Part shown: in pieces, positions 19,361-45,148 of the stretch
Layout: every line of letters begins with the position of its first letter
Numbering within the stretch: the first letter of the stretch is position 1
Source of the DNA: Thermoplasmatota archaeon
GTDB taxonomy: Archaea > Thermoplasmatota > Penumbrarchaeia > Penumbrarchaeales > Penumbrarchaeaceae
Direction of reading: 5' to 3'
Length of the DNA: 64,000 nucleotides
Assembly: GCA_029762535.1 (NCBI GenBank)
Contig: JARVGK010000007.1
Location: 32,001 to 96,000 of the forward strand
Translations under genes and position numbers: made by a program
Notes under the pieces: generated by a model
What the model was told of the DNA's origin: nothing
Databases searched by the model: none
The model's input: the letters and a program-made list of their open reading frames with translations, nothing else

Positions 19361-19440
19361 AATATATATTCTATATATGAATATATAGCCTATATCCTCT
19401 AATATAGTTTACGTATGTAAATCATATATATACTATGCAC
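19361..19440 (+). promoter_or_regulatory. AT-rich phased TATAT array upstream of pstS (candidate Pho box)
   Basis: TATAT-like units at ~19363, 19372, 19382, 19391, 19401, 19414, 19425, 19434 in a GC-rich genome. Confidence 0.55.
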
Positions 19441-20483: not shown

Positions 20484-20493
20484 AGTGGTGAAT

Positions 20494-22368: not shown

Positions 22369-22371
22369 GAC

Positions 22372-23193: not shown

Positions 23194-23201
23194 GTGATGT
23201 C

Positions 23202-23852
23202 ATGCCAGAAAAACTTGACGATGATATGCAGAAGTTGATGTCGGATATAACCGAGATGGCGAGTCTCTCCAAAGGCATGCTGATCGATTCCGTCCGAGCG
23301 CTCAAGGACCTTGACGGTGATCTCGCCAATGACATCATATCGAGAAAGGACAGGCTCTACGAGTACGATGACCGCATCGAGGAGCGGGCGTTGAAGATGC
23401 TCACGTTATACAGCCCCATGGCCTCGGACCTCAGAAGGATAGCCACCGTTTTCAAGATGATAACGTATCTGACAAGGATAGGCAGATACGGATACGACAT
23501 ATCAAAGATAACCCTGCATCTGGTGGGCAAGCCCCACGTGAAGAAACTCATAGATATCCCGCGCATGGCCGAGATCGTGGCGGGGATGATCGATGATGTC
23601 ATAGGCGCATTCCACACGGGCGACCTTGATAGGATCGCGGACCTGGCAGAGAGGGACAATATCGTGGATGAGACGAGGTATTCGATATTCAGGGAGTGCC
23701 TCACATACATGATGGAGGACCCATCGACCATAACCCGATGCACGGATTACATAATGATCGCGAGATACCTTGAGAGATGCGGCGATCACGCATGCAAGAT
23801 CGGTGAGAAGGTTCATTACATGATAACTGGCGAAAGGGTCGAGATCTCATAA
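23202..23852 (+). CDS. phoU: Phosphate signalling protein PhoU
   Basis: PMASDLRRI, RIGRY, RYLERCGDHA; follows pstB. Confidence 0.93.
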   Translation: MPEKLDDDMQKLMSDITEMASLSKGMLIDSVRALKDLDGDLANDIISRKDRLYEYDDRIEERALKMLTLYSPMASDLRRIATVFKMITYLTRIGRYGYDISKITLHLVGKPHVKKLIDIPRMAEIVAGMIDDVIGAFHTGDLDRIADLAERDNIVDETRYSIFRECLTYMMEDPSTITRCTDYIMIARYLERCGDHACKIGEKVHYMITGERVEIS

Positions 23853-24269: not shown

Positions 24270-24384
24270 AATATATAAAATATATATCTTTCCGGGCTTT
24301 ATATACAAGATATAGGGAATATTAATATCCTCTTCTTTGATTCCCGCGCTTGTAGAACGCGATAAAGCTTTGAAAGGTTGCGGG

Positions 24385-25458
24385 ATGGGAAATATGCTGT
24401 TCGATGGACCCGTGCGGAGAATGGAGAGGATATACTCCGGTTCACCTGGCAAAAGGATCGATGACTCGGACAGGATAGTGATATTCTCCGACATGCACAT
24501 GGGGAACAAGGGAAGGGCGGACGATTTCAAGGACAATGCCCACATCTTCAAAACGGCCATGACCTCCCTCTATGTACCTGAGGATTTCGATCTGATCATG
24601 AACGGGGACATAGAGGAGCTGCACAAGTTCAGGCCCAGGAGCGTCATGGATAGCTGGAAGGGCATATACGAAATGTTCAACGGCGCACTCGACAGAGGCG
24701 GTCTGGACAAGATATCGGGGAACCACGACCATAGGATCTGGCATACGGGGGTCCCGAACAGGGTCTCGGATATCATGACCGACGGATTGAAGCTCAGGTT
24801 CGGGTCCGACACTATTTTCGTCATGCACGGGCACCAGGCCTCGCTCAGGGCCGAGTCGCTGGAGAGATGGGTCCACTACGGGCTCAGGTACGGGGCCTCC
24901 CCCATAGGATTGAAGAACTATTCCTTCCCCCACGAGAGCGAACTCAAGTTCAGGATAGAGGAGAGGGTATATGATTTCTCGAAGAGGAAGAGGATTATGA
25001 CGATAATAGGGCACACACACCGCCCCCTCTTCGAATCCATGTCCAGGGCGGACTCGTTGAAGTTCAAGCTGGAGAGGCTGCTCAGGGATTACACTGACTC
25101 CACCGGGGATGAAAAGGCCAGGATCGAGAGGAACATACACATATACCATGCCGAGCTCGAGCGTCTCCTGCACAAGAACCCGAGGCCCGCCATGAGGGAG
25201 AGCCTCTACAACAGGGGCGTTCTGGTCCCGAACCTGTTCAACTCGGGATCATGCATAGGCAGGAAAGGGATAACGGCCCTTGAGATAGAGAACGGGAGGA
25301 TCTCGCTCGTGTACTGGTTCGATGCCGATAGGTCCACGAAATATTTCAACTACAACGGATTCAAACCCCAACGGGCGGAAGGATCCTCCATCTACAGGGT
25401 CGTTCTGAAGGAAGAGGACCTCTCCTACATATTCTCCAGGATCAATCTGCTCTCTTGA
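24385..25458 (+). CDS. Calcineurin-like metallophosphoesterase (LpxH/PlcP-like)
   Basis: SDMHMG, NGDIEE, GNHD, HGH, GHTH, NSGS motifs. Confidence 0.8.
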   Translation: MGNMLFDGPVRRMERIYSGSPGKRIDDSDRIVIFSDMHMGNKGRADDFKDNAHIFKTAMTSLYVPEDFDLIMNGDIEELHKFRPRSVMDSWKGIYEMFNGALDRGGLDKISGNHDHRIWHTGVPNRVSDIMTDGLKLRFGSDTIFVMHGHQASLRAESLERWVHYGLRYGASPIGLKNYSFPHESELKFRIEERVYDFSKRKRIMTIIGHTHRPLFESMSRADSLKFKLERLLRDYTDSTGDEKARIERNIHIYHAELERLLHKNPRPAMRESLYNRGVLVPNLFNSGSCIGRKGITALEIENGRISLVYWFDADRSTKYFNYNGFKPQRAEGSSIYRVVLKEEDLSYIFSRINLLS

Positions 25459-26038: not shown

Positions 26039-26857
26039 TCACCAATCGTATGTGGAAGAGGTTGTGGACCTCATCCCGAACTGATCGGCCACATCGAGCC
26101 GTATCGAGTAGGTCATCGGTGACATCGGGAACGTGACCCTGGCCATCCTTCCGTTGAGGGGGAATTCCAGGTCGGGAGTTCCCGGGAGACCATCATGGTC
26201 ATATGAGATCGTCCAGTCCCAGCTCAATATCTCTCCGCCCACCCCCGGATGATCGGAAAGCGAACCGTCGAGGACCGGGACCGATATGTACGATGCCGAC
26301 CCCGCATCCCATTCCGTCTGGGTCCTTACAACGAAGACAGGGGACGGAGGGAGGAAGTTCCTGTTGAACGAGTTCCCGTAGCTGGTGGATATCTTGATGT
26401 TCAGATAGGACGTGAGCGCTATGTCCTTGTCCCCGCCGAAGAAGTAAGTGTCCGGATATACGATAATCGTCACCTGCTCAGTCGAATCCAATTTGCCCCA
26501 GGAGGCGTAATCCGTCCCGGTCTCGAGGAGAACTCCGTTCTTCATGATATCGAACTTCTCGACGACGTGTTCGTTTATGCTTATCATCCTGATGTAGGAG
26601 GTGCCCTCATGGAAGCTGGCGATGATCAATCCGATCTCGAACCACTCCGTTCCGGCAAGGTTCTCCTGAAGCGATATGGAGGATATGCCTATCTTCTCAT
26701 TATCGCTGAGGTCCTGTATCCTCTGGTTCCTCTGGTACGCGTCCTGGCGGTCAGCCACGAAAACGGCGAACGATGTGGCGGCGACGACGACGATCAGAAC
26801 GAGTATCAACGCTCCGACCACCTCGGAGACTCCCGAACCGCCCTTGATCTTCTTCAT
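26039..26857 (-). CDS. Archaeal type IV pilin-like protein with C-terminal PKD-like domain
   Basis: Class III signal peptide MKKIKGGSG|VSEVVGALILVLIVVVAA; C-terminal LDGSLS...ILSWDW...YSIRLDVADQFG. Confidence 0.85.
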   Translation of the reverse strand: MKKIKGGSGVSEVVGALILVLIVVVAATSFAVFVADRQDAYQRNQRIQDLSDNEKIGISSISLQENLAGTEWFEIGLIIASFHEGTSYIRMISINEHVVEKFDIMKNGVLLETGTDYASWGKLDSTEQVTIIVYPDTYFFGGDKDIALTSYLNIKISTSYGNSFNRNFLPPSPVFVVRTQTEWDAGSASYISVPVLDGSLSDHPGVGGEILSWDWTISYDHDGLPGTPDLEFPLNGRMARVTFPMSPMTYSIRLDVADQFGMRSTTSSTYDW

Positions 26858-27033
26858 CCTCGATGCTATGAGGGACTATCTAGATAAAATGCATCAATGT
26901 ATAGCCGATATTATATGGAGTGGAATATAGGACTATGAAGATACATTACTTCTATATGGGTCAGGTTTAAACGAGACGGGGTTCTACAGCGTTACCCGGG
27001 TAAAAGAGAACCTGGCAGTATGGATGTTTCGAG

Positions 27034-27648
27034 ATGGCATTGAAGATACCCGTTCCCGGAATGGACCAGTTCCTATGCGACATACCGGACGGTTCGATGC
27101 TCGTGATGTCCGGGGGCTTCGAGGGCACACAGTCATTCCTCGCACAGTCCATCGGGTACGGGGCCTACAAATCCGGAAGGGAGGTGACCTACGTCACCTC
27201 GAGGGCGATCCCGGACATCATGGGCGAGGTAATGAGATTCGAACCGGGAGTGGTCCCTTTCTACCTTATAGAGAACGTGCCTCTAAATGATTGGAGAACG
27301 TTCATATCCTCAAAATGCGTCCTGATAGTGGACTCATACTCCCTGCTCGTTATGAACGTGGAACTCCCTCAACTGAGGGACGGGCTGATGGAGATCAAGA
27401 CGATTGCGAAGGAGCGCGGGGCCACGTTGGTCCTTGTGGCCCACCCTCCTCTCATCGATGAAAGGAGAACGTCCGTCACGGAATACTTCGCCGACTCTCT
27501 TGTCGAGTTCAGGTCCCAGGAGGAGGACGAGTTCGTACGAAGATACCTGAGGGTCCACAAATGGTACGGTACGATACTGGAGCAGCTTATCTACTACAGG
27601 ATCGATGAAGGGCGAATGGAGATAGACCTCAGGGCCAGGATAGTGTGA
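27034..27648 (+). CDS. RecA-fold KaiC/RAD55/FlaH-like protein, degenerate Walker A
   Basis: IPVPGMDQFL.DIPDGSMLVMSG, LIVDSYS, YFADSLVEF, RYLRVHKW; lacks GKT/S. Confidence 0.7.
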   Translation: MALKIPVPGMDQFLCDIPDGSMLVMSGGFEGTQSFLAQSIGYGAYKSGREVTYVTSRAIPDIMGEVMRFEPGVVPFYLIENVPLNDWRTFISSKCVLIVDSYSLLVMNVELPQLRDGLMEIKTIAKERGATLVLVAHPPLIDERRTSVTEYFADSLVEFRSQEEDEFVRRYLRVHKWYGTILEQLIYYRIDEGRMEIDLRARIV

Positions 27649-27658
27649 GGACGTTCTT

Positions 27659-29173
27659 ATGATACAATCCAAGGGATACGAGAGATTCGGCCTAACGGGC
27701 AACCCTTTCCGGGACCTTGCCTCCGAGACGCTCGAGACCATCGACATCTTCCACGTCAGACAGGAGATGGACGATCATCTGCGAATGATAATCGACGAGA
27801 TCTTCGAGAAGCAGTCCAAGGCGGTCGTGGCCATACTCGGAGCCCTGGGCATGGGCAAGACCCAGAGGCTTCTCCTGATCCAGAGCTGGGCCAGGGATAA
27901 GAAGGCCTACTGCGTGTTCAGGTCCATCAATCCCCAGGCAAAGCTCGTCATAAGCGATGTCATAAAGACCTTGATCGATACGGTCCCCCTGACATTCTTC
28001 GAGAGGAACATCTCCGCGCCCAGATTCTATTCGGACCTGAAGAAGGCATACAGGTCCTCCCGGAAGAAGTTCGACCCGGAACTGATCGGCAGGGCCATCG
28101 CCGGAGCCCTCAACGCCCGTTCCCCTTCGATACTTATACTTAACGACCTTCACAACGTCGATCCAACGGCCGAGCTGCCGGATTTCCTTCAGGTGCTGTA
28201 TTCCATAGTCAACAACCTGGACGAGGGCGTCATGATAGCGATAGGGTCCAACTCCGCATATTTCGACGGGATAATGAAGAGGCATCAGTCCCTCGAGGAG
28301 AGGATAAACTACAAGCTGGAGGTGCAGCCCCTCATAGACACGGAGGCCCAGGAGATGGTGGCGAAGAGGCTGACGGCGAAGAGGCTCGTCGAGGACCTAA
28401 ACCCCATATACCCCTTCAACAACGATTCCATATCGATATTGAACTCGGAATCACATGGAAATCCCCGGCAGGTCCTCAAGCTCTCGGACAGGATCATCGA
28501 CCAGGCCGCGACCGAGAGGGTCATACAGATAGACGCCCAGTATGCGATGGATATACTCGAGGGATCGAGACAGAAGAGGTCCCTTCCTCCGGCCCCCCAT
28601 GAGATCCTCAAGAAGCTGAGGGAGGAGGCCAGGGTCAAGAGGCCGGCCATCCCGTCTCGGACCCCCCCGGGCATCTCAACAGAGTTCGAGAAGAAGGTCA
28701 AGGAATACGAGCATGCCCTGGAGAAGATGGAGAAGGCCCTGGAGAGGAAAGAACCCCTGCCTGAAAAAGAGAAGAGGATGCCCGGGGCAGCGGTCAAGGT
28801 CGATCTCCCGGTCGATGCTCCTCTGGAGGTCGCTCCATCGATGCCCGATCCGATCGGGACGGTGCCCCCGGTCAAGGTCGATCTCCCCGTCGATACTCCT
28901 CTGGAGGTCGCTCCCCCGATGACCGGTCCTACCACGATCGTGCCCAAGCCCTCCCTGGACGAGGAGCTGCCGCTCATCATCAAGAAGAAGGTGACGATGA
29001 GAAAATTGGAGACCGTCACCGAGGACGGCATTCCGGCGCCTCCGAAGAGCATCTTCATAATTGAGGAGAGGGAAATGCCCGGTCCTCCCAGGAAAGAGAA
29101 GGGTTCCAAGGGCGAACCGTCCGAGGATGCCGTTCTCTCCAGGTACAGGTCGGTTCCTCCGACGCGGAGTTAA
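27659..29173 (+). CDS. ExeA-like AAA+ ATPase with Pro-rich disordered C-terminus
   Basis: FGLTGNPF N-motif, Walker A GALGMGKT, variant Walker B ILILNDLH, SHGNPRQ. Confidence 0.75.
   Translation: MIQSKGYERFGLTGNPFRDLASETLETIDIFHVRQEMDDHLRMIIDEIFEKQSKAVVAILGALGMGKTQRLLLIQSWARDKKAYCVFRSINPQAKLVISDVIKTLIDTVPLTFFERNISAPRFYSDLKKAYRSSRKKFDPELIGRAIAGALNARSPSILILNDLHNVDPTAELPDFLQVLYSIVNNLDEGVMIAIGSNSAYFDGIMKRHQSLEERINYKLEVQPLIDTEAQEMVAKRLTAKRLVEDLNPIYPFNNDSISILNSESHGNPRQVLKLSDRIIDQAATERVIQIDAQYAMDILEGSRQKRSLPPAPHEILKKLREEARVKRPAIPSRTPPGISTEFEKKVKEYEHALEKMEKALERKEPLPEKEKRMPGAAVKVDLPVDAPLEVAPSMPDPIGTVPPVKVDLPVDTPLEVAPPMTGPTTIVPKPSLDEELPLIIKKKVTMRKLETVTEDGIPAPPKSIFIIEEREMPGPPRKEKGSKGEPSEDAVLSRYRSVPPTRS
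28791..28935 (+). repeat. Two-copy in-frame tandem repeat, 78-bp period (VKVDLPVDxPLEVAP)
   Basis: cggtcaaggtcgatctccc.gtcgat.ctcctctggaggtcgctcc at 28791 and 28869. Confidence 0.9.
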
Positions 29174-29625: not shown

Positions 29626-31029
29626 CTAGAACACGGCTATGGAGAATAGAAGGACCACGACCAGGGCGAGAACGAGCGAGTGTACCAGTCCGTAGCGGAT
29701 CTTGCCCTCGGTTATCTTCCCTATTATCGTTCCAGATCCGATCCCCATTATGATCGCCAGATGGAAGAAGCGCCTCTTCAGCGTCAGAAGCCCCATCTTG
29801 ACGACAGATGCGCCCCCTTCCGACCCTTCGAGTCCCTGGAAGCCGAAGACCATGGACATGTCCAGATTCTCGAACTTGGGATAGACGTCCATAAGCATGT
29901 ATATGACCGTGAGGAGAACGCCCAAGGCCATGTATATTATAGTTATCTGAATGGTCATCTGCCTCCTTCTCTCGGCCTTGACCTTCACGAAATCGTCCAG
30001 ATCCCTCGCAGCCCTGTGCACGACGACGGCTATGTTGCCCCCTATCTTCGTTGATTCGGCGATGAGCGTCGTGTACCTCTTCACCACCCTGCTGTTCGAG
30101 GGAGCGGCCACGATGTCCAGGGCCTCTTCGAACGCCCGCCCCGCCATGATGTTCTTCGAGGCGATCCTGAGGTATTTTGACATGACGCTCGAGTCGGTCT
30201 TCGCTATCTCGACTATCGCCCTGGCCGGGTCTATGCCGCCTCTCATTCCGTCCGCGATCCCGAACAGGAGCTGGGCGAACGCCGCCTCGTACCTGTTTAT
30301 CCTCTTGAGCTCCCTCTGCGAGTCGATCGCGTACGGGGTCGTTCCGATGAAGAAACCGATTATCAGAACGATCTCGATCCCGAACCTTCCCAGGTCCGGA
30401 TGGTCGTGGACGTAGAATAGTCCCAGTATGGTGAAGGTGATGGCGGTGAGGATCGGTACGTAGAGTATTAGATACTTCTGCTGCACCGGATGCGTTATGA
30501 GGAACTTCTTGAGCCTGAATCTCCTCTTGGCCCTCAGATAGATATAACCGGATATGGCCAGTACCGCGAGGATGGCGAATATCACGCTGATGAAAACGAG
30601 GACCTGCATCGAGGAGGGGAGGGTGAGTTCGAACCCGGGCTCCGGTTCGTCGCTGACGATGAAGACCGAATCGACCATCGCCTCGTTCCCCGCGTTGTCC
30701 CTGATGATGAAGGTGAGATTGTGCGGGCCGCTCGATAGGGTGTATATAGTGTCTATCTTGACCGTCATGTCGGTCTCGTTCACTATGAGGTCGAAGTAGG
30801 CGGAGACGTCGAAATCGTCGATGTAAAGAACCGCGCTTCCCGTGTCAATGCCCGAATAATCGGTGTACTTTATCTGTATCACCGGGTTGGGATCGTATAT
30901 GGTCTGGTTCGCCGCGGGATAGACCAGGGTGACGATCGGCGGATCCGTGTCCTCTGCTGATGCATAGGACATGATGAGGACCAGGGGCAACAGGAGAAGG
31001 ACCGCTGCGGGGAACGTGAACGATCTCAT
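29626..31029 (-). CDS. Type IV pilus platform protein (FlaJ/TadC, T2SS-F) with N-terminal signal peptide and Ig-like domain
   Basis: Signal peptide ...ASA|EDTDPP, Ig-like domain ending GPHNLTFIIRDNAGN, then TM helices and T2SS-F domain (QLLFGIADGMRGG, IGGN, GKIRYGLVH). Confidence 0.85.
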   Translation of the reverse strand: MRSFTFPAAVLLLLPLVLIMSYASAEDTDPPIVTLVYPAANQTIYDPNPVIQIKYTDYSGIDTGSAVLYIDDFDVSAYFDLIVNETDMTVKIDTIYTLSSGPHNLTFIIRDNAGNEAMVDSVFIVSDEPEPGFELTLPSSMQVLVFISVIFAILAVLAISGYIYLRAKRRFRLKKFLITHPVQQKYLILYVPILTAITFTILGLFYVHDHPDLGRFGIEIVLIIGFFIGTTPYAIDSQRELKRINRYEAAFAQLLFGIADGMRGGIDPARAIVEIAKTDSSVMSKYLRIASKNIMAGRAFEEALDIVAAPSNSRVVKRYTTLIAESTKIGGNIAVVVHRAARDLDDFVKVKAERRRQMTIQITIIYMALGVLLTVIYMLMDVYPKFENLDMSMVFGFQGLEGSEGGASVVKMGLLTLKRRFFHLAIIMGIGSGTIIGKITEGKIRYGLVHSLVLALVVVLLFSIAVF

Positions 31030-31938
31030 TCAATCCACCTTTGCATAGGATGCCGATATGAACAGGTTCATGGCGATCACGGAGAAGGGGATCAGGAAAT
31101 ATGTCATGATTATGAGAAGGGTGCTCGCGTCTATCCCGTTGAACGTCGATGCCAGCGTCTCCATGAGGAACGCCGCCACCCCGGCGAACAATATTCCCAT
31201 CAGCACCAGGCTGGTATAGATCTCCATCAGGGTGCCGAGGCCCTCTATGAACTCCTTCTGTATGTCCCTCTTGAGTTTGAGGCTCGCATCGGCCTTGTTC
31301 CTGAGATACGTGTCCATGTCGCCGCCCTCGTGTATCATGTTCGAGAAGTCCCAGAGCATCTCCCTGAGATGCTGGGAGGGAGTCTCCTTGGCCGTCTCGC
31401 TTATGGCGGTGATTATGTCCTTCCCCTCCACGTCCAGGTGGTATATTATCTTCCTGAACTCCCTGGACATGTACTTCGAGTCCTTTCTCTGGGAGATCTT
31501 CCTCATTATCTGAACCGGGGAGAGGCCGGTGGATGCCAGGATGGAGAGCTCGCTCATGGTGAAGGGCAGCTCCTTGTCTATCTCCGACTTCTTCTTGGAT
31601 ATCCTCGAGGAGATGATAAGGGGATAGGAGAATATCGTGACGAGAAGGGAGACGGCAAAGAGCGAGGCCGTGAACAAGGGCCAGCCTTCCACGTTGAACA
31701 TCACCCTGAAGACGAGTATGGATATGATAAGGACCGCCGCGGCCGAGAACAGCGTGGCGTATAACATCATGGAGAGGTACATCCCCGGGGACATGTTCAC
31801 GTCCCCCTTGGACAGCCTGAGCTTGAGCCGGTTCATGTCGTATTTTAGATCCAATGTGCGACCAAGGGACTGATAGGAGAAACGCTTGTACCTCTCCAGG
31901 AACCCCTCCCAGGCGGAGGGGTCATCCTTTCTTGACAT
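31030..31938 (-). CDS. Type IV pilus platform protein (FlaJ/TadB/TadC, T2SS-F)
   Basis: IDKELPF...LASTGLSP, GKDIITAI...TPS, HEGGDM.TYL. Confidence 0.88.
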   Translation of the reverse strand: MSRKDDPSAWEGFLERYKRFSYQSLGRTLDLKYDMNRLKLRLSKGDVNMSPGMYLSMMLYATLFSAAAVLIISILVFRVMFNVEGWPLFTASLFAVSLLVTIFSYPLIISSRISKKKSEIDKELPFTMSELSILASTGLSPVQIMRKISQRKDSKYMSREFRKIIYHLDVEGKDIITAISETAKETPSQHLREMLWDFSNMIHEGGDMDTYLRNKADASLKLKRDIQKEFIEGLGTLMEIYTSLVLMGILFAGVAAFLMETLASTFNGIDASTLLIIMTYFLIPFSVIAMNLFISASYAKVD

Positions 31939-33673
31939 CGATGGCCCCCATCGATTCGAGGTTGACCATGGCCTTCGTGGGGTCCATGTAGAATTCGTTT
32001 ATCGCCCTGCTCACGTCCTTGTAATACGTCAGGTTCTTCTGGTCCATCAGCTTGAGGTATTTCTCCTTGCGGTATATCTCGTCCATTATGGACTGGAGCG
32101 TCTTTCCGGTCGATCTCGCTATGTCCTCTATCAGGAAGCTCCTCCCCGTGAACTTGAACGCATCGTTCGTGGGATCCCACGTGAAGGGGGCGTTCGTCAG
32201 AAGGTTCTTTGAGGATGGCTCGATGTCCAGGACCTCCGTCACGCCCTTGACGCGCCTGACCCTCCTGCCCCTGTACACGACCTGCCCCTGGAAAACGACG
32301 GCGTCGAGCGACATGAACAGGGACCTGGGTATGTCCATCGGGGGGTTCTCCACCCTGTGTATCAGCTCGTCGATGGAGCCGGCGTGTATCGTCGCCATCG
32401 CGGCGTGCCCGACGGCTATGGCCTGGAACAGGGTGAACGCCTCCTTGCCCCTGACCTCCCCCACTATCACGTATTCCGGTCTCTGTCTCAGGGCCGCTAC
32501 CAGCAGGTCGAACATCGATATGCTCCCCGAGGACCCTCCCGAGGCGCTGACCCCGAACCCCCCCCTTGATACGGACTGTATCCAGTTGGTGTGGTCGATG
32601 TGGATCTCGGGGGTGTCCTCTATGGAGACCACCTTGTCCTCCGGCTTCACGAACATGCACAGCGCGTTCATGAGCGTGGTCTTGCCCGAGGCCGTGCCTC
32701 CGGAGATGAGAAGCGACCTCTTATACTCGATTATCGTCCAGAAGTAGGCGAGCTGGAAGGCGGAGATCGATCCGAACCTCATGAGGTCCACAGGTGAGAT
32801 GGGATCGTGGGAGAACTTCCTTATCGTGAAGGTGGAACCTTTTCTCGTGACCTCGGAGCCCAGCGTCAGGTTGATCCTCGAGCCGTCGGTGAGGGTGGCG
32901 TCGAGTATGGGCTGATAGACGGAGACGTGCTTTCCGGCGACCTGGGCGAGTTTTACGACATAGCGGTTCAGCTCCACATCGGAGGGGAATTGTATGTTGG
33001 TCTTCATTGACCCCATCCCCCTGTGGAATATGTAGATGGGGATGTTGGGTCCGTTGCAGGATATGTCCTCTATGAACGGGTCCTTGATGAGGGCGTCCGC
33101 CCTCCCCCAGCCGATGAGGTCCCTCTGGAGGTAGTAGAAGAGGACGCGCCTCCTCTTCTCGTCAAGGTCTATGTTGTAGAGGTCCAGAACTGACTGGTAG
33201 AGGCCGAGTATGTAGTTCCTGAGCTGGTCGGAGCGTCCGTACTCGGAACCCTCGGAGATCGGGAGCTCGTCCTGGTCCATTGCGACCTCCATCTTCGACT
33301 TTATGCTCTGGATGAGGTCCTCCTCGCCCTCTTTGAGCCTGGGCTCCTTTATGAGGTACTTCATCTCGCCCTCTTTTCTGTCATATGTGATGTTGACGAA
33401 GGAATAAGGAGGGTTCACCGGATAGGTCAGGTTGACCCCGAGCTTCTCCTTGTCCAGTTCCCGCCTCATGAAGTTGAGCTCGCGCTGGATGATTATCTTC
33501 TCGGAGATCTCGCCTTTCTTCCTCAGCTGGGATTCGATCTCGCGGGCGCGCTTTCGAAGCTTTTCCCGGAACTCGGGATCCTCCATCCTGTCGTCCGTGA
33601 GCTTCTCCTTCTTCATGAAGGGCAGGTCCGCCGATGCGGTCCATTTTACAATTCTATCCATTAATCCTGTCAA
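31922..33673 (-). CDS. Type II/IV secretion ATPase (FlaI/VirB11 family)
   Basis: DPFIEDISCNG, DGSRIN, FTIRKF, GGTASGKTT, IEDTPE, ALRQRPEYVIVGEVRG, GHAAMATIHA. Confidence 0.95.
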   Translation of the reverse strand: MTGLMDRIVKWTASADLPFMKKEKLTDDRMEDPEFREKLRKRAREIESQLRKKGEISEKIIIQRELNFMRRELDKEKLGVNLTYPVNPPYSFVNITYDRKEGEMKYLIKEPRLKEGEEDLIQSIKSKMEVAMDQDELPISEGSEYGRSDQLRNYILGLYQSVLDLYNIDLDEKRRRVLFYYLQRDLIGWGRADALIKDPFIEDISCNGPNIPIYIFHRGMGSMKTNIQFPSDVELNRYVVKLAQVAGKHVSVYQPILDATLTDGSRINLTLGSEVTRKGSTFTIRKFSHDPISPVDLMRFGSISAFQLAYFWTIIEYKRSLLISGGTASGKTTLMNALCMFVKPEDKVVSIEDTPEIHIDHTNWIQSVSRGGFGVSASGGSSGSISMFDLLVAALRQRPEYVIVGEVRGKEAFTLFQAIAVGHAAMATIHAGSIDELIHRVENPPMDIPRSLFMSLDAVVFQGQVVYRGRRVRRVKGVTEVLDIEPSSKNLLTNAPFTWDPTNDAFKFTGRSFLIEDIARSTGKTLQSIMDEIYRKEKYLKLMDQKNLTYYKDVSRAINEFYMDPTKAMVNLESMGAIDVKKG

Positions 33674-33874
33674 GGCGCCTTGGCTACTCTTATTACGATA
33701 TTAATTACTGTTTCACGTAAAGGACATACAATATATAGGGATACGGAGGGGATCTTTCCCCAATGGAGAGGAAGTTGGGATCGGTAAGACAAGACAACTA
33801 TTTGGAGAACGCCTATATGCCCTTCTTTGGGTCAGGGAAATGGGTCCCGAAGGGGATCCAAGTAGGTGAAAGAA

Positions 33875-35014
33875 ATGAAGCACATGAAAAACGACAAGGC
33901 AGGGGTCTCCCCGGTCATTGCCACGTTGATATTGGTGCTCATCGCCGTAGCGGCGGGAGTTGCCTTTTTCGCATGGCAGTCTGGCTGGCAGGAAGACGCC
34001 ACAGGTAACATAAGCAATGCGAACGCACAGACGGAGATAACCATCGGTGGATCCTCCACCGTCTATCCTTTCACGGCAGTTGCGGCTGAGGCTTTCATGG
34101 AAGCCAACCCCACCGTGAAGATCTCCTACCAGTCCGGTGGATCCGGTGCAGGAACCGCTGGCGTCAGGGAGGGTGTCATCGATATCGGTGCCGCCTCCTC
34201 CGACAGGACCCAGGCCAAGCACTTCCCCGACCACCCCGACGTGGTCATCACCGCCGTCGGCTATGACGCCGTCGGTGTCGTCGTCGATGATGGCAACACC
34301 AGGATAAACGATATCAACGCAACCGTCGCAATCGAGATCTTCACAATGGTCATCACCGACTGGAACCAGGTCCCTGTTGCATCTGGCGCGTCCGGAACTG
34401 GCACAACTGGTGCAGCTGGTTCTGAGACCACTGTAACAGTCTCCACCGGAACCCTTGCAATTGGCAGGTACAGGATGTGGTCTGCAACAACTCTCGTGAG
34501 GACTGTCGATGTTATAGCTGCAAATACGCTCCCCTCAGATCTCTTCGGAGCATCCGCATCCATCTCCTGGCAGGTTATCACCTCCGCTACCTCCGCTCCT
34601 ATCGAAGTCTACGACAGGGCTGACAAGTCCGGAACCGAGGAGTGCTTCAACGAGAAGCTCCTCGGCCTCGATGGATCCTCCATCCCCGAAGGTGATCAGA
34701 CCGGTGTCGCAGGCAATCAGGAAATGCTCGACCTCTTCGAGGCTGGCGCACCCAACGCTATCGGATTCATCTCCACCGGTGTCGCCACCTCCGATGTGAA
34801 GCTCGTCACCCTCGACGGCGTCGCCGCCACCGAGGAGAACATCGCTGACGGGTCCTACACCGCCCAGAGGCCCCTGAACTATATGTACATCCCCTCCCAG
34901 CTCGGCGGAAAGCTCGCCATCGTTGAGGCGTACATAGACTTCTGCATGTCCCCCAAGAACAATATTGACTTCGCCCACTCCGTGGACTACCTCTCCTGGT
35001 ATGACCTCGAGTAA
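33875..35014 (+). CDS. Pilin-PstS fusion: phosphate-binding protein with archaeal class III (pilin) signal peptide
   Basis: MKHMKNDKAG|VSPVIATLILVLIAVAAG followed by PstS motifs GGSSTVYP, GGSGAG, DIGAASS, DRADKSGT, YTAQRPLNY; AGGTGA RBS. Confidence 0.9.
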   Translation: MKHMKNDKAGVSPVIATLILVLIAVAAGVAFFAWQSGWQEDATGNISNANAQTEITIGGSSTVYPFTAVAAEAFMEANPTVKISYQSGGSGAGTAGVREGVIDIGAASSDRTQAKHFPDHPDVVITAVGYDAVGVVVDDGNTRINDINATVAIEIFTMVITDWNQVPVASGASGTGTTGAAGSETTVTVSTGTLAIGRYRMWSATTLVRTVDVIAANTLPSDLFGASASISWQVITSATSAPIEVYDRADKSGTEECFNEKLLGLDGSSIPEGDQTGVAGNQEMLDLFEAGAPNAIGFISTGVATSDVKLVTLDGVAATEENIADGSYTAQRPLNYMYIPSQLGGKLAIVEAYIDFCMSPKNNIDFAHSVDYLSWYDLE

Positions 35015-35047: not shown

Positions 35048-35095
35048 GGAGGGTTTTTTATTAAACCCTCCTTTTTTTTTATTTTCTTTCTTTTT
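35048..35095 (+). terminator. Hairpin + long T-tract between pilin-pstS and pstCA2
   Basis: GGAGGGTTT-tttatt-AAACCCTCC (perfect 9-bp stem) followed by T9 and further T runs. Confidence 0.75.
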
Positions 35096-35127: not shown

Positions 35128-38100
35128 ATGGATCTCAAGGTTCCGAATTGGGCTGTTGCGATAGTTCAGGCATTGATATTCGTCATAATCTTCTTCCCCG
35201 CCCTCTTCGCATTGGACTCATTCTATCTACAATTGCCTTTCTTCATCCTGGAATTGATCATGATCTTCATCGTTCTCACCAAGAAGGATATGAGATTCTT
35301 TTACATGTTCTGGCAGTTCCAGATATATCTCCTCATTCTATTCAAGGTGATATTCGATTACAATACAACGTTCAAGACGATCGATTCTGAACCATTGGCG
35401 ATCATTGTCATCTCGTTCTTCATAACATTCCTGGAAGCATTGATCCTTGTGGGATTCATCCTTCGGGAAAAGGGCGTTAAGCCCATACTTGTGACACTGT
35501 CCTCAACGACCAGCATCGTTGTGCTGCTCATTATCATTTTTATTTTCAAGGAAGGTCTCCCGGCTTTTTCGGAGAACGATCCTATCGAGTTCTTGACAGG
35601 AAATAGCTGGACGGCAGATTATGAACCATCCTTGGAAGATACGATCCTGATCGAGGTCGTTGTTTCGGATTACGATCACGAAATATCGATACCGGATGAT
35701 AGGCTGTATCTCGCAATAGATGAGAACCATACTGTTCCCATCGATCTGAAGAACACCGGATCGAAGGATGATACCTATCTGTTAAGTTTGGAATATCCCT
35801 CCGGTCTATCGGTTCAGGATCATCAAAGAACTGTTTTTTTAAGATCTGGATCGGATCATACTTTCGATATCGATCTTTCTTCAAATATTTCCATGGACTT
35901 GGATCTGAGGATCATTGTGGGATCCATGAATGGAAGTATATCAAAGGAAAGGACAATAGACCTGGCTTTCGGAGACGTTGGGATCGATGCGGGGCCGGAG
36001 TACTTCCATTATCTGAATTCGGAGATGAATGTCCCTCGCACTCCTTTTTGGGTGAAGAATACCGGGAACGTAGTTGAGACCTATTCCGTGACATTGACCT
36101 TCGATGAAGAGATCATCAAACCTTTTGTGACCGGGACCGACAATGATTGGGACCACGATAACGATACAGTTGACATCACCCTGGACCCCATGGAAACCGT
36201 TTCCTTCAACGTGATAACAAGGATCCTGAACCTTCGCCCGTTCAGGTCTACAATAACGATCGATGTCGTGTCAAGGACGGATCCCGGCATATATGACAGC
36301 ATAGTGATCGACTTCGAGTATCGGGACAGGAGCTATTTCGATCACGATCAAACTTCTTTCGTCGTATCCAAAGGCTCCGATGTCATCATCCCGGTCTTCG
36401 TCAATATCACAAACCCGGCAAATTCCAATTTCTTCATACTGGTTGAAGATGGGAACGGGCCCCTGGAGACCTTCAGCCTATCGTATGATTCCGTAAATAT
36501 CGATGAAATCGATGAAAAGGTTCCGATCAACCTATCATCGGGTATGAAGACCCTTCTATTGACCGTCAGGTCCAATTCGAATATCGGAGGATCGGAGAAT
36601 ATCACCCTTAATATCACATTGGAGAGGGAAGGGACCTATCCTTCCTTCGGCATCGGCCCGATGATCGTCGGCACGTTCATCACCGTCCTTGTCGCATTGA
36701 TCATAGCCGTTCCATTAGGACTGGGTACGGCGATCTTTTTGGCGGAATACTGCCCCAAGAAACTGCACATCTTCCTGCGTCCTATGTTCGAACTTTTGGC
36801 CGGGATCCCTTCGATAGTTTACGGCCTCTGGGGATATTTCACATTGGTACCCTTCTTCAGGGACAACATATACGGCCCGGTGAGTGGATCTTTGGGATTG
36901 GCGATCCCCTTCCTAAGGATCACACCGGAGACCCCCAGTTCCGAGGGGACCGTGATCGTTGCCGGTTTCGTCCTATCAATTATGATACTTCCGATCATCA
37001 TAACCCTTTCCGAAGATTCTATACGAGCCGTTGCCAGGAGCCTGAAGGAGGGATCGCTCTCATTGGCCACGACTAAATGGCAGACGATAAGAGGCGTGGT
37101 CCTGAAAAGAGCGAAAAGCGGGATCATATCCTCTATCATTTTGGCCATGGGAAGGGCCATAGGCGAGACCATGGCTGTTATAATGATACTCAGGATAGCG
37201 ACGAATTATCCGAGTTCGCTCTTCGAACGGGCAGGGTCAATGACCGCGGTCATCGCCGGGACCTTCGGATGGGCATTCGATCTCGATCTTTCAAGACATG
37301 CCGTCTTTGGGGTTGCGATCGTGCTGTTCATGATCGTCTTCGTTCTTAACCTGATAGTCTTCAGGATACAGAACGGTGAGAAGAAGGGAAGTATCGCTTT
37401 CCGGTGGGTAAATCGTATCGTCGAGAAGGCCATCAATTATTGTTTCAGGAAAAAAGAAGACATGAGGACCCTTCCGACCAAGGGACCGGTGTTCGATAAA
37501 AAGAATATGACATCACTTGGCTTTTTACGGTTCCAGGAATACCTGTTCAGGTCATTGTTCGCGCTATCGGCAATAGTGATCTTCATATTCCTCCTGCTTG
37601 TCCTAAGCAATGTTTTCATTACGGGAATATCATCGATGAAATTATACTATCTTTTCGAAAAGGAAGTCGCGGGAGGATTGGAGGACGGTGGATTCCTCAA
37701 TGCCATTCTCGGTTCCCTTCAGCTGACGTTCTTGGCATTATTGATCTCCTCCATATTCTCGTTGGGAGCGGCCATATACATTACACAGTTCAGCAAACAG
37801 AACAATATCCTAACGAGGACCATACTCTTCTCTTCCGATACCCTTGCTGCGACGCCTTCGATCGTATTCGGGGCATTTGGGTTCATTTTCTTCTCCATCG
37901 AGCTCAAACTAGGCCTGTCGATGTTGTCGGCAGCGCTTACTCTGTCAATAATGGTGATCCCCCTCCTTTTAAGAAGTTCGATAGAAGCTCTCAACAGCAT
38001 ACCCAGAGAGCTTGGGGATGGTTCCCTGGCATTGGGAGCGAGTAAATGGCAGACGGTGTGGAACGTGATATTGCCGCCGGCATTGGGGGGAATATCAAGT

Positions 38101-38373
38101 GGCGTTATCCTTTCCATCGGCAGGGCCATCGGAGAGACGGCGGCCATCCTTTTCACGGCAGGTTATGCCCTGACCATAAACAACTCCATAATGTCATCGG
38201 TTGCGACCATGCCGAATATGATCTACAATTACTATGGTCTCAGCTCCCACAATCCCGCCCTTCAGGATAAATTATATTCATGTGCCCTTGTCTTGATCGT
38301 CCTGGTATTGATCCTGAACTCCATCGCCCGTTTATCACAGATAAGAACGAACAAATTGAAGGGGAATTATTAG
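35128..38373 (+). CDS. Giant PstC-PstA fusion permease with extra N-terminal TMs and ~340-aa extracellular Ig-like insertion
   Basis: LAGIPSIVYG...GRAIGETM (PstC) and LAATPSIVFG...GRAIGETA (PstA); insert with LKNTGSKDDTY and VKNTGNVVETY motifs (CARDB/NEW3-like). Confidence 0.88.
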   Translation: MDLKVPNWAVAIVQALIFVIIFFPALFALDSFYLQLPFFILELIMIFIVLTKKDMRFFYMFWQFQIYLLILFKVIFDYNTTFKTIDSEPLAIIVISFFITFLEALILVGFILREKGVKPILVTLSSTTSIVVLLIIIFIFKEGLPAFSENDPIEFLTGNSWTADYEPSLEDTILIEVVVSDYDHEISIPDDRLYLAIDENHTVPIDLKNTGSKDDTYLLSLEYPSGLSVQDHQRTVFLRSGSDHTFDIDLSSNISMDLDLRIIVGSMNGSISKERTIDLAFGDVGIDAGPEYFHYLNSEMNVPRTPFWVKNTGNVVETYSVTLTFDEEIIKPFVTGTDNDWDHDNDTVDITLDPMETVSFNVITRILNLRPFRSTITIDVVSRTDPGIYDSIVIDFEYRDRSYFDHDQTSFVVSKGSDVIIPVFVNITNPANSNFFILVEDGNGPLETFSLSYDSVNIDEIDEKVPINLSSGMKTLLLTVRSNSNIGGSENITLNITLEREGTYPSFGIGPMIVGTFITVLVALIIAVPLGLGTAIFLAEYCPKKLHIFLRPMFELLAGIPSIVYGLWGYFTLVPFFRDNIYGPVSGSLGLAIPFLRITPETPSSEGTVIVAGFVLSIMILPIIITLSEDSIRAVARSLKEGSLSLATTKWQTIRGVVLKRAKSGIISSIILAMGRAIGETMAVIMILRIATNYPSSLFERAGSMTAVIAGTFGWAFDLDLSRHAVFGVAIVLFMIVFVLNLIVFRIQNGEKKGSIAFRWVNRIVEKAINYCFRKKEDMRTLPTKGPVFDKKNMTSLGFLRFQEYLFRSLFALSAIVIFIFLLLVLSNVFITGISSMKLYYLFEKEVAGGLEDGGFLNAILGSLQLTFLALLISSIFSLGAAIYITQFSKQNNILTRTILFSSDTLAATPSIVFGAFGFIFFSIELKLGLSMLSAALTLSIMVIPLLLRSSIEALNSIPRELGDGSLALGASKWQTVWNVILPPALGGISSGVILSIGRAIGETAAILFTAGYALTINNSIMSSVATMPNMIYNYYGLSSHNPALQDKLYSCALVLIVLVLILNSIARLSQIRTNKLKGNY

Positions 38374-38976: not shown

Positions 38977-40203
38977 ATGTTGATAGAGTTCAAGCTCAGG
39001 AACTTCAGGTCCATCAGGGACGAGATGACCTTCAGCCTGCTGGCATCGAGCGACAGGACGCATTCCCAGAACTTAATCGTTCACGATGCATTGAAAAAGG
39101 ACCTTCTGCTTAAGAGCGCCGTGATCTACGGCGCCAACGCTTCGGGTAAGACCAACGTTCTTCTGGGTTTGAACACCCTAAGAGGACTTGTCGTCCATTC
39201 TCACAGCAACCAGATAGGTCAGGAGCTTCCTTACGAGCCGTTCAGATTGGACGAAAGGGCCGGGTCCGACGATACCTCCTTCCGGATCGCATACATTCAT
39301 AAGGACATCAAGTACATCTACGAGCTCTCCTACAACAGGGAAAAGGTTGTTGATGAGGTTCTCTACAGCTATCCGCAGGGAAGAAGGTCGTTGCTCTTTT
39401 CAAGGACCGGAACGGATAATTACAGGTTCACCAAAGATGAAAAGGAGCAGACCCTGATCAAAGAAAGGACACCCCCGAACGTCCTCTACCTTTCAAGGGC
39501 CGCACAGTTCAACTACCAACCTGCAATAGATGCGTTCGAATGGTTCAAGGAAAAGCTGAAATTTATAGGACCTTCCGACCATATCAATCTGATGAAGTTC
39601 ACAAGCAAAATGCTGGAGGACCCCAAGAGCAAGGACATGATCCTTCAGGGGCTCAGGACCGCGGACCTCGGGATAGACGATGTCATCCTCAACAATGTCA
39701 CTATCAGGGCCGAGGAGCTGCCCGGGGACCTCCCTTCGGAGCTAAAGGATAGGTTGGTAGGCTCCGAACGTACTAGGATATTGACATATCATAAGGGTGT
39801 TCCGTTTGACCTTTCAGATGATGAGTCCGAAGGCACCAAGAGAATGTTCCATCTGATCGGACCCGTAATAAAAGCTCTCAACGATTCACAGGTCCTCCTG
39901 ATAGACGAGCTCGATACAAAGCTCCATCACCTTATGAACATCTTTTTGATAGAGCTGTTCCAGAATACCGACAACCCTTCATCCCAGCTCGTGTTCACAA
40001 CACACAACACAACCCTTCTCGAATCCGAACTCTTCAGAAGGGACCAGATATGGTTCACCGAAAGACGGCCTGATGACGATTCGACCGACCTCTACTCTCT
40101 CCTTGAGTTCCACCCCAGAAACGATGCGAACATAAAGATAGGATACCTGTCGGGAAGGTACGGTGCCATACCTCTCATCAAGAGCGAAAGGTTGTGCCCA
40201 TGA
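38977..40203 (+). CDS. AAA_21 ABC-type ATPase (RloA / AbiLi-like)
   Basis: MLIEFKLRNFRSI, YGANASGKTN, ESEGT, LLIDELD..LH, QLVFTTH, FRRDQIWF, YLSGRYGAIP. Confidence 0.9.
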   Translation: MLIEFKLRNFRSIRDEMTFSLLASSDRTHSQNLIVHDALKKDLLLKSAVIYGANASGKTNVLLGLNTLRGLVVHSHSNQIGQELPYEPFRLDERAGSDDTSFRIAYIHKDIKYIYELSYNREKVVDEVLYSYPQGRRSLLFSRTGTDNYRFTKDEKEQTLIKERTPPNVLYLSRAAQFNYQPAIDAFEWFKEKLKFIGPSDHINLMKFTSKMLEDPKSKDMILQGLRTADLGIDDVILNNVTIRAEELPGDLPSELKDRLVGSERTRILTYHKGVPFDLSDDESEGTKRMFHLIGPVIKALNDSQVLLIDELDTKLHHLMNIFLIELFQNTDNPSSQLVFTTHNTTLLESELFRRDQIWFTERRPDDDSTDLYSLLEFHPRNDANIKIGYLSGRYGAIPLIKSERLCP

Positions 40204-40823
40204 CCGAAAGAGGCTATTCCAGGAGAAGGGACCGAACGCGGCGTTCCTTTAACACGGTCCTCGTTGTCTGTGAAGGGCTCAAGACGGAAAGGATATATCT
40301 GAAAGGATTGAACGAAAGGTACGGTCGTGTTCATATCCTACCTGTTCATTCCGGTTCGACCGATGTCAGGTCCATGGTAAGATTTGCTGTGGGAAAGAGA
40401 AGGGAATACCAGTTCCGGGAAGGGGACGGGAACGAGACCTGGTGCGTCTTCGACGTGGATGAGAAGGACGATGATGAGCTCCTTCAATGGATCCCATATG
40501 CAGAAAGGAACGGTGTGATGGTGGCTCTCTCCAATCCTTCTTTTGAGCTCTGGTACCTCCTTCATTTCGATTACAGGCCCGGTCCGACCGACAGGTACAA
40601 GGTCCTGGAGGACCTGAAAAGGTCCATACCTGATTACGAGAAGAGCGGTTGTTACAATCATATCCTTTACCCCCTGACCATGAATGCAATAGATAATTCC
40701 AAACGATTGAACAAAGAACATTCAAGGATAGGAGTTGACCTTAACTCCAAAAAGGCCAACCCATCGACCCAGGTCTTCAAGCTTATCGAAGCGGTCAAAC
40801 TTTTAAAAGAAAGGAATGGATAA
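40200..40823 (+). CDS. RloB-family (AbiLii-like, TOPRIM-related) protein
   Basis: VVCEGLKTERIYL, WCVFDVD, SNPSFELWYLLHF, NPSTQVFKL; ATGA overlap with the ATPase. Confidence 0.9.
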   Translation: MTERGYSRRRDRTRRSFNTVLVVCEGLKTERIYLKGLNERYGRVHILPVHSGSTDVRSMVRFAVGKRREYQFREGDGNETWCVFDVDEKDDDELLQWIPYAERNGVMVALSNPSFELWYLLHFDYRPGPTDRYKVLEDLKRSIPDYEKSGCYNHILYPLTMNAIDNSKRLNKEHSRIGVDLNSKKANPSTQVFKLIEAVKLLKERNG

Positions 40824-43104: not shown

Positions 43105-44052
43105 TCACTTCATGAAGGAAGCGCGGTATGCGATCTCGGCTATCTCGTCGATGTAGGTTATTATCCTGTTGAACGAATCGGCCACTTCCGCCCAAGCGAT
43201 CGCGTTCTCGGCCCCGTCGTGTACCCGGTCTACCCATCGAAGCTCCCTGCAGGAATGGATCACGCTCTCGGACACCTCGGCATCCTTCTCCAGAAACGCC
43301 TTGACGGACCGGTCCAGTATCTCCTGCAGCTGGAAGAACGCCGTATCGGGCGGGATCGGACCCTGCCCCGACGCGACCTTGGCCATATTCAATGCGTGGT
43401 CCGCGATCCTCTCGAGATTGTTGCTCACGGTCACGTAATTGCTGCCGTTGTCCCTGTATATTCCAAGCGTCTCCGAGTTCGATGAATCGTATAGAACAAG
43501 GTTGTAATGCCTCTTTATGAGCCAGTTGTAAAAGTTTACGCTGTGGTCCATATCCTCCATGTCGGGGATGCGGCCCTTGTCCCCCTCCATGCTCTCCACC
43601 GAAAGCCGGAGCATGCTCCGCGTCATCTTGTGCATCCTCTCGAGCGCCCTGACGGTGTCGTACCTGGAATAATCCAGAAGGTCCCTGGCGACGAGGCGGT
43701 CGGCCTCCTCCTCGACGATCTCGAACCCGGTGATCCTGGACAGCACCGTTTTGATGTCGGACCTCAGCCTGTTCGGGTCCCTGTCCCCGAACCTGAAGTT
43801 TATGGCGGTGAACCCGGATATGTAAAGGCCGATTATCTTTCGGTAGAGGGTGTCGATATCGTCATCGACGACCATGTCATATTCCCTGGGATTGCGCGGC
43901 CTTCCGGGGATGTTGAGCACCATGGTCCCGTCCCCCCTCAACGAGAGCTTCATGCTCTCCCCCTTGGACAGGCCGCTCCTGACAACCCAATCCTTCGGAA
44001 GGGATATCGTGAAGGTCGAGTGCCCTGTCTTCTGGATCTTTCTCGTATCCAT
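43105..44052 (-). CDS. Archaeal AbrB-PhoU phosphate uptake regulator
   Basis: MDTRKIQKTGHSTFTISLPKDWV (AbrB), YISGF, GFEIVEE, LERIADHA (PhoU). Confidence 0.9.
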   Translation of the reverse strand: MDTRKIQKTGHSTFTISLPKDWVVRSGLSKGESMKLSLRGDGTMVLNIPGRPRNPREYDMVVDDDIDTLYRKIIGLYISGFTAINFRFGDRDPNRLRSDIKTVLSRITGFEIVEEEADRLVARDLLDYSRYDTVRALERMHKMTRSMLRLSVESMEGDKGRIPDMEDMDHSVNFYNWLIKRHYNLVLYDSSNSETLGIYRDNGSNYVTVSNNLERIADHALNMAKVASGQGPIPPDTAFFQLQEILDRSVKAFLEKDAEVSESVIHSCRELRWVDRVHDGAENAIAWAEVADSFNRIITYIDEIAEIAYRASFMK

Positions 44053-44116
44053 GCGACCATATTCGCTATCAAGGTAGTTTATGATTGTCAATATATAATA
44101 TATTGGACCATATATA

Positions 44117-45148
44117 CTATGTATTATGCGGGGCCGCGAATTCGCGCGAGAAGAGCTGATTGATGGATATCTCGCATATGTCCTGCATGTAAGATACGAT
44201 CCTGTCCATCGAATCAAGGACGAAGGCGCAAGCGAGTGATGCCTGGGTCCTGTCGGCAGAAGCGAGAAGGGGGTCCCTTATCGCGCGGATGTTCCTCTCG
44301 AGATCGGCGCATTTATTTACAAGGGAATCGGACATGGCCAGATCGCCCCTGTTGAACGCCTCCATGGCATTGTCCAGGATGCGCACCATGGCCGCGTTGA
44401 TCCGGTTCATCCCTGATAGGTCCATGCCTTCCCCCACCGCGTCCCAGTATTTACCGATCCTCAGGACATGCCGGCTTATCCTCTCCAGACACCTCACAAG
44501 AAGAAGGTATCCCAGGGCCCCGTGGACCTTCATCTCCTCCTCGGTCTCGTCCCTGGATATCCTGGTGTAGTTCTTCATGATGAGGAGATGGAACCTCTGT
44601 ATCTCGGCATATCTCTCCTCGAGCTCTCCGACGTTCGGAGCGTCCCCTCCTTTGCGGTCCGGGATGTACTTCATCATGCCCCTGACGATGAGATGGACCC
44701 TTCTCACCGACTGTTCGAAGGAGAATCTGCCCTTGACGGTGAGGTCCCTCACGATAACATGGTCCGAATCCTCCTCGATTATATCCAGACCGGTGAAGCT
44801 GGATAATATGGACCTGATCGAGTCACGGGACACTAAATCGTTCTCCTCCATATCGAGCCTTATGGAATCATATCCCGCCAGATAGGCCGCGGTGAAGGCC
44901 CGCAGGACGTCCTCCGGATCCTTCCCGCGCATGTCGATCCTGTAAGGAGGGGTCCTGTCGACCGGGACAGAGATATCCAGGAGGGGCTTGAACAGTATCG
45001 TTCGGTCGGATACGGGAATTATGTTCATGTTGTCGCCGTTCTTGAGCCCCAATCTCTCGACCCATTTCTTAGGGAGAGTAATGAGGAACGTGGAGTTGCC
45101 CGAGCACTGTATCCTTCTCATCTCGGATAATACCTCATCCATACGCAT
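44117..45148 (-). CDS. Archaeal AbrB-PhoU phosphate uptake regulator (second paralogue)
   Basis: RRIQCSGNSTFLITLPKKWV, AYLAGYD, GLDIIEE, LERISRH; start overlaps the pstB2 stop. Confidence 0.9.
   Translation of the reverse strand: MRMDEVLSEMRRIQCSGNSTFLITLPKKWVERLGLKNGDNMNIIPVSDRTILFKPLLDISVPVDRTPPYRIDMRGKDPEDVLRAFTAAYLAGYDSIRLDMEENDLVSRDSIRSILSSFTGLDIIEEDSDHVIVRDLTVKGRFSFEQSVRRVHLIVRGMMKYIPDRKGGDAPNVGELEERYAEIQRFHLLIMKNYTRISRDETEEEMKVHGALGYLLLVRCLERISRHVLRIGKYWDAVGEGMDLSGMNRINAAMVRILDNAMEAFNRGDLAMSDSLVNKCADLERNIRAIRDPLLASADRTQASLACAFVLDSMDRIVSYMQDICEISINQLFSREFAAPHNT

Follow-up and report, generated by a model that had tools for sequence, protein, structure and literature searches.

The open reading frame at 33875-35014 raises two questions: whether a type IV pilin helix is truly joined there to a PstS fold, and what an archaeal cell might do with phosphate-binding heads on pilin stalks. 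The frame lies in a stretch of 64,000 nucleotides from a Thermoplasmatota archaeon, which was analysed at its full length and is referred to here as the window. As judged from profiles and structure models, the fusion is real. The second question is approached through two aspects that the original prediction did not include, namely a conserved T4F-plus-Pst cluster around the gene and the precedent of class III binding proteins, a kind already established with the bindosome. The parts of the fusion are as follows.

33875-35014, plus strand: pilin-PstS fusion of 379 aa (profiles, AF2 model, Foldseek)
33875-33907, plus strand: class III leader of 11 aa, with predicted cleavage after Gly11 (profile and family alignment)
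33908-34015, plus strand: pilin alpha-1 helix, residues 12-47 (TIGR02537 above cut-off, match to Iho670, AF2 helix 13-47)
34031-35011, plus strand: PstS (PBP-2) domain with nine ligands, in which Ser replaces the low-barrier-hydrogen-bond Asp
34382-34585, plus strand: variable Thr/Gly-rich beta insert in the PstS domain, at about residues 170-237

The N-terminus had been described as a textbook archaeal pilin domain. Its pilin character is borne out by TIGR02537, the archaellin/type IV pilin model, which gives 22.5 bits for the full protein and 28 bits for its first 60 aa (cut-off 20). The UpsA profile matches the N-terminus weakly (E 3.7e-5), and residues 11-86 match Iho670, the pilin of the solved Ignicoccus filament (phmmer, E 1.6e-4). 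The short charged leader, the G/A at -1 and the hydrophobic stretch past +1 are those of a class III substrate, and in the AF2 model a single helix at 13-47 precedes a two-lobed domain that contains a beta insert. The word textbook slightly overstates the case, since position -2 is Ala rather than Lys or Arg, which fails the basic-residue (FlaFind-type) rule (PMC3387779). A basic residue at -2 is also absent from six of the seven class III candidates of the host genome, and Lys or Arg is found there in 112 of 234 homologues. The profile search proposed along with the prediction has given a divided answer: PBP_like_2 (E 2e-24) and TIGR02537 are matched, but the gathering threshold of Pfam Pilin_N is missed by the fusion (15.7 against 25.2 bits). 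A prepilin peptidase candidate is found on contig C14 of the host, with PF01478 at 28.6 bits (above 26.5), a weak FlaK match and both Asp motifs. Three-copy complex prediction of the Methanosarcina sp. T3 homologue returned a score of 0.01, which weighs neither for nor against an assembly. The host genome also encodes a protein of about 2500 aa with a pilin-type N-terminus (G000:C69:93064-100656, minus strand), and similar giant pilin-headed frames occur in several genomes of its class.

The PstS fold with intact phosphate-binding motifs, which had also been claimed, is confirmed by the nine ligands of the PBP-1 of C. perfringens, all of which are in register (S60, S61, T62, S90, S108, R248, S252, G253 and T254). 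PF12849 scores 87 bits, and the fold is that of a two-lobed PBP-2 protein. The first 41 Foldseek matches are all phosphate-binding proteins (4GD5 at E 1.5e-20), and a ModA-type protein is not reached before rank 45. The curated cut-off of TIGR02136 is missed (144.8 against 206.6 bits), the match being split by the insert of about 70 aa; the ordinary lipoprotein PstS of the host misses it as well (181.4 against 206.6). Linkage to pstC, pstA, pstB and phoU is likewise that of a PstS.

The region around the gene contains several putative signals for its expression.

33812-33819, plus strand: candidate TATA box of the fusion gene, aligned with AAGCTTATTAA in relatives
33841-33860, plus strand: 5' hairpin just before the ribosome-binding site (-14.4 kcal/mol, z -3.8), present in the four closest relatives
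33864-33869, plus strand: ribosome-binding site AGGTGA, five bases 5' of the ATG, with the same layout in close relatives
35048-35085, plus strand: hairpin and T-tract between the fusion gene and the permease gene

The AGGTGA site stands as predicted, while the long leader is not supported, as the TATA-like element would give a leader of about 33 nt with the hairpin at its start. A sigma-70 promoter scan is inapplicable to archaea. Downstream, a T-tract is found in 71% and folding at z<-2 in 52% of 119 family loci, and such a terminator-like signal suggests that fusion mRNA may be made in excess over that of the permease. Ordinary pst operons, too, commonly have a terminator behind pstS. The codons do end in C (C3 0.52, the 99.7th percentile, or the 98.7th once amino acids are corrected for), but this is no sign of high expression, since the ribosomal genes of the host are not C-rich and the codon adaptation index of the fusion against ribosomal proteins is an unremarkable 0.706 (83rd percentile). 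The lipoprotein PstS (0.729) and the T4F ATPase (0.795) both have higher values. The very high expression once predicted from codon usage is therefore not borne out, and the codon argument for a major filament subunit fails with it. That the fusion is such a subunit is still plausible, and the idea is better backed by the adjoining dedicated machine, the conserved terminator-like signal, which would put the mRNA in excess, the fixed spacing between helix and domain, and the ligand-less paralogues described below.

A putative regulator box, TATAG-N1-4-CTATA, is found upstream of 37 of 119 family genes, against 7% in mononucleotide shuffles, which are a weak control; the fusion gene is preceded by a half-site only, and the host genome has 185 matches. 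Palindromes resembling TATAG-N-CTATA are also found at 19363-19395, before the canonical pstS, and at 26900-26940, in the divergent promoter of the second pilin and KaiC genes. They are candidate operators of the AbrB-PhoU regulators listed below.

Two Pst systems and a T4F machine are encoded around the fusion gene in the window.

19464-23852, plus strand: canonical operon of lipoprotein pstS, pstCA, pstB and phoU
26039-26857, minus strand: second pilin, 272 aa, with a weak PKD-like C-terminus (Pilin_N 27 bits, above cut-off)
27034-27648, plus strand: KaiC/ArlH-like protein
27659-29173, plus strand: AAA/ATPase_2-like P-loop protein, kept in the Thermoplasmatota copies of the cluster
29626-31029, minus strand: TadC/GspF platform protein 2 (PF00482), with a weak N-terminal Ig-like match (Big_3_2)
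31030-31938, minus strand: TadC/GspF platform protein 1 (PF00482)
31922-33673, minus strand: T4F assembly ATPase (T2SSE/FlaI-like), divergent from the fusion gene
35128-38373, plus strand: PstC-PstA fusion permease of 1081 aa (TIGR02138 and TIGR00974 above cut-off)
35632-36627, plus strand: three predicted extracellular Ig-like beta-sandwiches of the permease, residues about 169-500 (model)
43105-44217, minus strand: AbrB/MazE-PhoU regulator 2
44117-45436, minus strand: AbrB/MazE-PhoU regulator 1, whose actual start probably lies further downstream than listed
45148-45903, minus strand: second PstB, 64% identical to the first

The original prediction had rightly placed another PstS, with a lipobox, at 19464; its lipobox-like motif is AGC, so that two types of anchor coexist, and in a tree of PBP domains it falls in a separate lineage from the fusion. 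The second, PKD-type pilin is a candidate minor or tip pilin. The Ig-like insert forms the first extracellular loop of PstC-PstA and is conserved in Thermoplasmatota homologues. The clusters of Methanosarcinales have short PstC and PstA, often with a separate CARDB/DUF11-like gene of about 680 aa upstream, and in some Methanoregula clusters the second permease frame is long. Other genes share the region. For example, a calcineurin-like metallophosphoesterase (24337-25458, plus strand) lies between both Pst systems and possibly belongs to a phosphate island, and a pair of RloA-like AAA_21 ATPase and RloB (38977-40823, plus strand) is inserted between the permease and the second pstB. Similarly, an 858-aa protein with HTH, NB-ARC and TPR regions (STAND-type; 16773-19349, plus strand) is encoded directly 5' of the canonical pst operon.

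The combination is found well beyond this host. Searches collected 234 distinct pilin-PstS proteins, which are carried by Thermoplasmatota, Methanosarcinales, Methanomicrobiales, Methanocellales, ANME-1, ANME-2 and Nitrososphaerales. The phosphate ligands are nearly invariant among them, as are helix positions S2, P3, A6, T7, L8 and L10, a conservation that is partly circular owing to the search patterns; the same helix is present in 21 of 24 loci retrieved with PBP-only patterns. The -1 residue is Ala or Gly in all 234, which is again partly due to the search pattern. In 191 of the 234 members, +1 and the GST motif, which is the first of the ligand motifs, lie 48 or 52 residues apart, two values that differ by about one helical turn; the corresponding distance is 14-40 in 16 of 17 lipoprotein PstS proteins.

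Among 67 distinct loci flanked by 7 kb or more on each side, whose counts overstate independence as the loci are related by descent, an ATPase lies within the flanks in 62 (5 have none), TadC in 57, a KaiC-like gene in 60, a second pilin in 45 and pstC/A in 46. Some pst gene is present in 66 of them, a count in which the PstB label may take in other ABC ATPases; pstC/A is missing from the flanks of many Thermoplasmata loci. In Methanolobus, Methanosarcina sp. T3, Methanocella and ANME the genes follow one another on one strand in the order pstS-pstC-pstA-ATPase-tadC-tadC. A 100/98 branch separates the 39 Pst-linked ATPases from 24 paralogues of five genomes, and hence a single machine lineage accompanies the fusion across phyla. 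No pst gene is found near the other four T4F ATPase loci of the host, one of which is its archaellum locus, this background being that of the host genome. The full fusion occurs in 2 of 37 genomes of the host's class, many of them incomplete, which points to an accessory module. The host itself is probably an uncultured representative of Thermoplasmatota: locus L089 of a genome in its family (G036) shares its upstream DNA with L003, a locus labelled Thermoplasmatales. The PBP domains of the fusions form a distinct subfamily, a few members of which carry a lipobox or another anchor (P0181, L126). As this tree is a quick run with mislabelled rows (L191 and L192 have pilin N-termini) and one artefactual row (L013), it leaves a single origin of the fusion unproven. 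A second pilin-PstS copy lies beside a PhoU-domain gene in some Methanolobus (L164:5721-6845, minus strand; L173:4750-5868). Copies of the cluster or its genes in bins labelled Deltaproteobacteria (L133/L175) and Acidimicrobiales (L068) closely resemble the archaeal ones and are probably mis-binned contigs rather than cases of transfer.

One Methanocellaceae genome, MFD09286.bin.2.142, encodes five pilin-PstS paralogues without the GST, Arg and SGT ligands (loci L188, L191, L192, L197), all of which retain the pilin helix and a complete PstS-like fold. Four of them surround a single ATPase-TadC-TadC-pilin machine, and to three of these four a further domain is attached: ModA (115.7 bits, above cut-off), Peripla_BP_2 of the iron/B12 type (BtuF-like), which adjoins a matching ABC transporter, and one of unknown kind. 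The retention of a ligand-less fold between stalk and cargo hints, in this single genome, at a structural role of the PstS fold in the assembly, which is countered by the few subfamily members with a lipobox or other anchor.

Built on the observed architecture, ligand residues, gene linkage, ATPase clade and signals of transcript punctuation, the reading judged moderately probable is that of a phosphate-specific, bindosome-like T4F system, in which the fusion is mounted as a short pseudopilus or pilus and feeds its own PstCA-PstB. Under phosphate limitation, the divergent promoters would express pilin-PstS in excess along with the ATPase and the two platform proteins. A PibD/FlaK-like peptidase of the host would cut off the 11-residue leader, and the dedicated ATPase-TadC machine would pack the alpha-1 helices into a short pseudopilus or pilus, to which the PKD-type pilin may contribute a minor or tip subunit. 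The PstS heads, held beyond the cell envelope, would bind phosphate through the PBP-1-type site, whose residues are all present, and hand it to the PstCA-PstB of the cluster; it is a speculation that the Ig stack of the permease may span the distance.

This filament reading is favoured by the joining of pilin helix and PstS ligands in one protein, by the frequent company of ATPase, TadC and pst genes, and by the ATPase clade set beside the pst-free ATPase loci of the host. The conservation of the helix and its fixed spacing, the terminator-like signal of most loci, the peptidase candidate, the ligand-less paralogues around one machine and the precedent of the bindosome (PMC3047682) argue for it too. 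It is weakened, however, by the Ala at -2, the Pilin_N score and the unremarkable codon adaptation index, by the 5 loci without an ATPase and the relatedness that inflates the counts, and by the alternative anchors, which imply that the PBP domain can work without a pilin stalk. Moreover, buried phosphate would have to get from filament to permease, and the bindosome of S. solfataricus has been seen as 400-600 kDa complexes rather than pili. A bolder version, possible though doubtful, would make the fusion the major pilin of an extended filament of traps, in which turnover driven by the ATPase delivers loaded heads to the Ig-stalked permease and the module serves as a display scaffold for molybdate-, iron/B12- and other binding domains, as in Methanocellaceae.

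The swapping of anchors within the subfamily could instead mean that the helix is a membrane tether like a lipobox, and that the machine builds a pilus of the PKD pilin for adhesion in starvation and is merely co-regulated. The second pilin in 45 of 67 loci would suit such a tether, and so would the terminator, being the usual one after pstS. Likewise, 1376 SPIII binding proteins belong to genomes without a T4F locus, by the account of the 2026 census (PMC13705601). This explanation is nonetheless thought unlikely, as the conservation and fixed spacing of the helix exceed the needs of a tether and one ATPase clade accompanies the fusion across phyla; in Thermoplasmatota the fusion is the immediate neighbour of the machine, and some loci have no second pilin at all.

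The ligand-less Methanocellaceae paralogues, the many Thermoplasmata loci with no pstC/A in the flanks and the full lipoprotein Pst system at 19464-23852 would all agree with an appendage of another kind, one that is structural or adhesive and made in starvation, whose PstS heads are a scaffold or stick to phosphate-bearing minerals or polymers while uptake is left mainly to the lipoprotein PstS. PstS-rich adhesive appendages have indeed been reported in phosphate-starved Pseudomonas aeruginosa (PMC2242829). This is considered quite unlikely, because the ligands are nearly invariant in 234 members, a dedicated permease is present in 46 of 67 loci and the window has its own second PstB, and because a PstS site buries the anion completely, which fits transport and not adhesion (PMC5381212). 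A ligand other than phosphate, such as tungstate, molybdate, sulfate, arsenate or an organophosphate, is highly improbable. The TIGR02136 score and the lack of the low-barrier Asp, which the fusion shares with the weakly selective PBP-1 (about 150-fold over arsenate, PMC5381212), leave some room for it; the complete set of PBP-1 ligands, the run of phosphate-binding Foldseek matches ahead of ModA and the PstC, PstA, PstB and PhoU neighbours speak against it.

Since the bindosome work it has been an open question whether T4F machines really assemble the archaeal binding proteins that bear pilin signals, and validation of the link is called for in the text of the 2026 census (PMC13705601). The cluster unites binding protein, machine, transporter and regulators, and phosphate starvation would be a cheap trigger. 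As it is present in cultured methanogens (Methanolobus vulcani, M. profundi, M. bombayensis, M. psychrotolerans, Methanoculleus palmolei DSM 4273 and Methanosarcina sp. T3), the assembly question is directly testable. A paper on phosphate starvation in M. mazei does not mention pili. If the filament reading is true, an ATP-driven surface device would be added to the phosphorus uptake of sediment, peat and methane-cycling archaea. The fusion of a binding protein with a pilin signal is of a known kind; no description of a phosphate-dedicated T4F-Pst locus that has an ATPase clade to itself was found in the open-access literature.

Class III-signal binding proteins have been predicted in many archaea (PMC2910488, PMC3387779; Szabo et al. 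2007 via PMC2910488). Sivabalasarma and Albers count 4397 of them, with SPIII signals, in their 2026 census, the text of which proposes that they functionalise T4F machines for scavenging and describes their genes as usually away from T4F clusters, with the link unvalidated (PMC13705601). Unlike those cases, the cluster in the window provides a link by locus between an SPIII binding protein and a T4F machine. The main text of the census does not contain the word phosphate, and PBP_like_2 may be listed in its figures or tables (PMC13705601). Archaeal T4P subsystems 1, 2 and 4A-4I and the archaellum have the same ATPase, TadC, pilins and KaiC-like gene, and pst genes were not found in the portions of the subsystem descriptions at hand (PMC4858521, PMC13705601); phosphate is also absent from the main text of Makarova 2016 (PMC4858521). 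The machine in the window is not an archaellum by its scores (NF058587 for ArlI 410 against 550, ArlJ 77 against 550, ArlH 43 against 215), and the host has a separate, archaellin-bearing archaellum locus on contig C14.

PBP-1-type PstS proteins (C. perfringens 4Q8R/4GD5) share with the fusion the fold, the nine ligands and the Ser in place of the low-barrier Asp, whereas the fusion has a pilin stalk instead of a lipobox, a variable beta insert and a subfamily of its own. The appendages of P. aeruginosa also combine surface PstS under phosphate limitation with a T4F-superfamily machine, the Hxc type II secretion system, which contributes to the surface PstS; their reported role is in adhesion and virulence, and the abstract mentions no pilin-type N-terminus (PMC2242829).

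The closest comparison is with the bindosome of Saccharolobus (Sulfolobus) solfataricus, in which BasEF and BasABC go with GlcS, AraS and TreS and which was observed as the 400-600 kDa complexes (PMC3047682, PMC2910488). Both pair a class III binding protein with an ABC transporter, here the adjacent pstCA, with a function that would follow from the genes. The bindosome proteins bind sugars, whereas the fusion is of the phosphate type; their genes lie beside their transporters and away from bas, whereas the fusion gene is inside the machine locus. Two TadC genes, a KaiC-like gene and one PKD pilin are found here in place of BasABC, three small pilins that are absent from the locus, its only further pilin being the one of 272 aa. 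The ATPase is not a BasE ortholog (NF053672, 193 bits against a cut-off of 1000), nor is BasF matched (NF053673, 40 against 1300). Subsystem 4I is restricted to Sulfolobales in the text of the census (PMC13705601), whereas the hosts of the fusion are from other groups. By analogy, the phosphate cluster may thus work like a bindosome and yet stand outside the Bas system, and the cells that have it probably expose phosphate traps on a filament at their surface, in the manner of the Sulfolobus bindosome for sugars.
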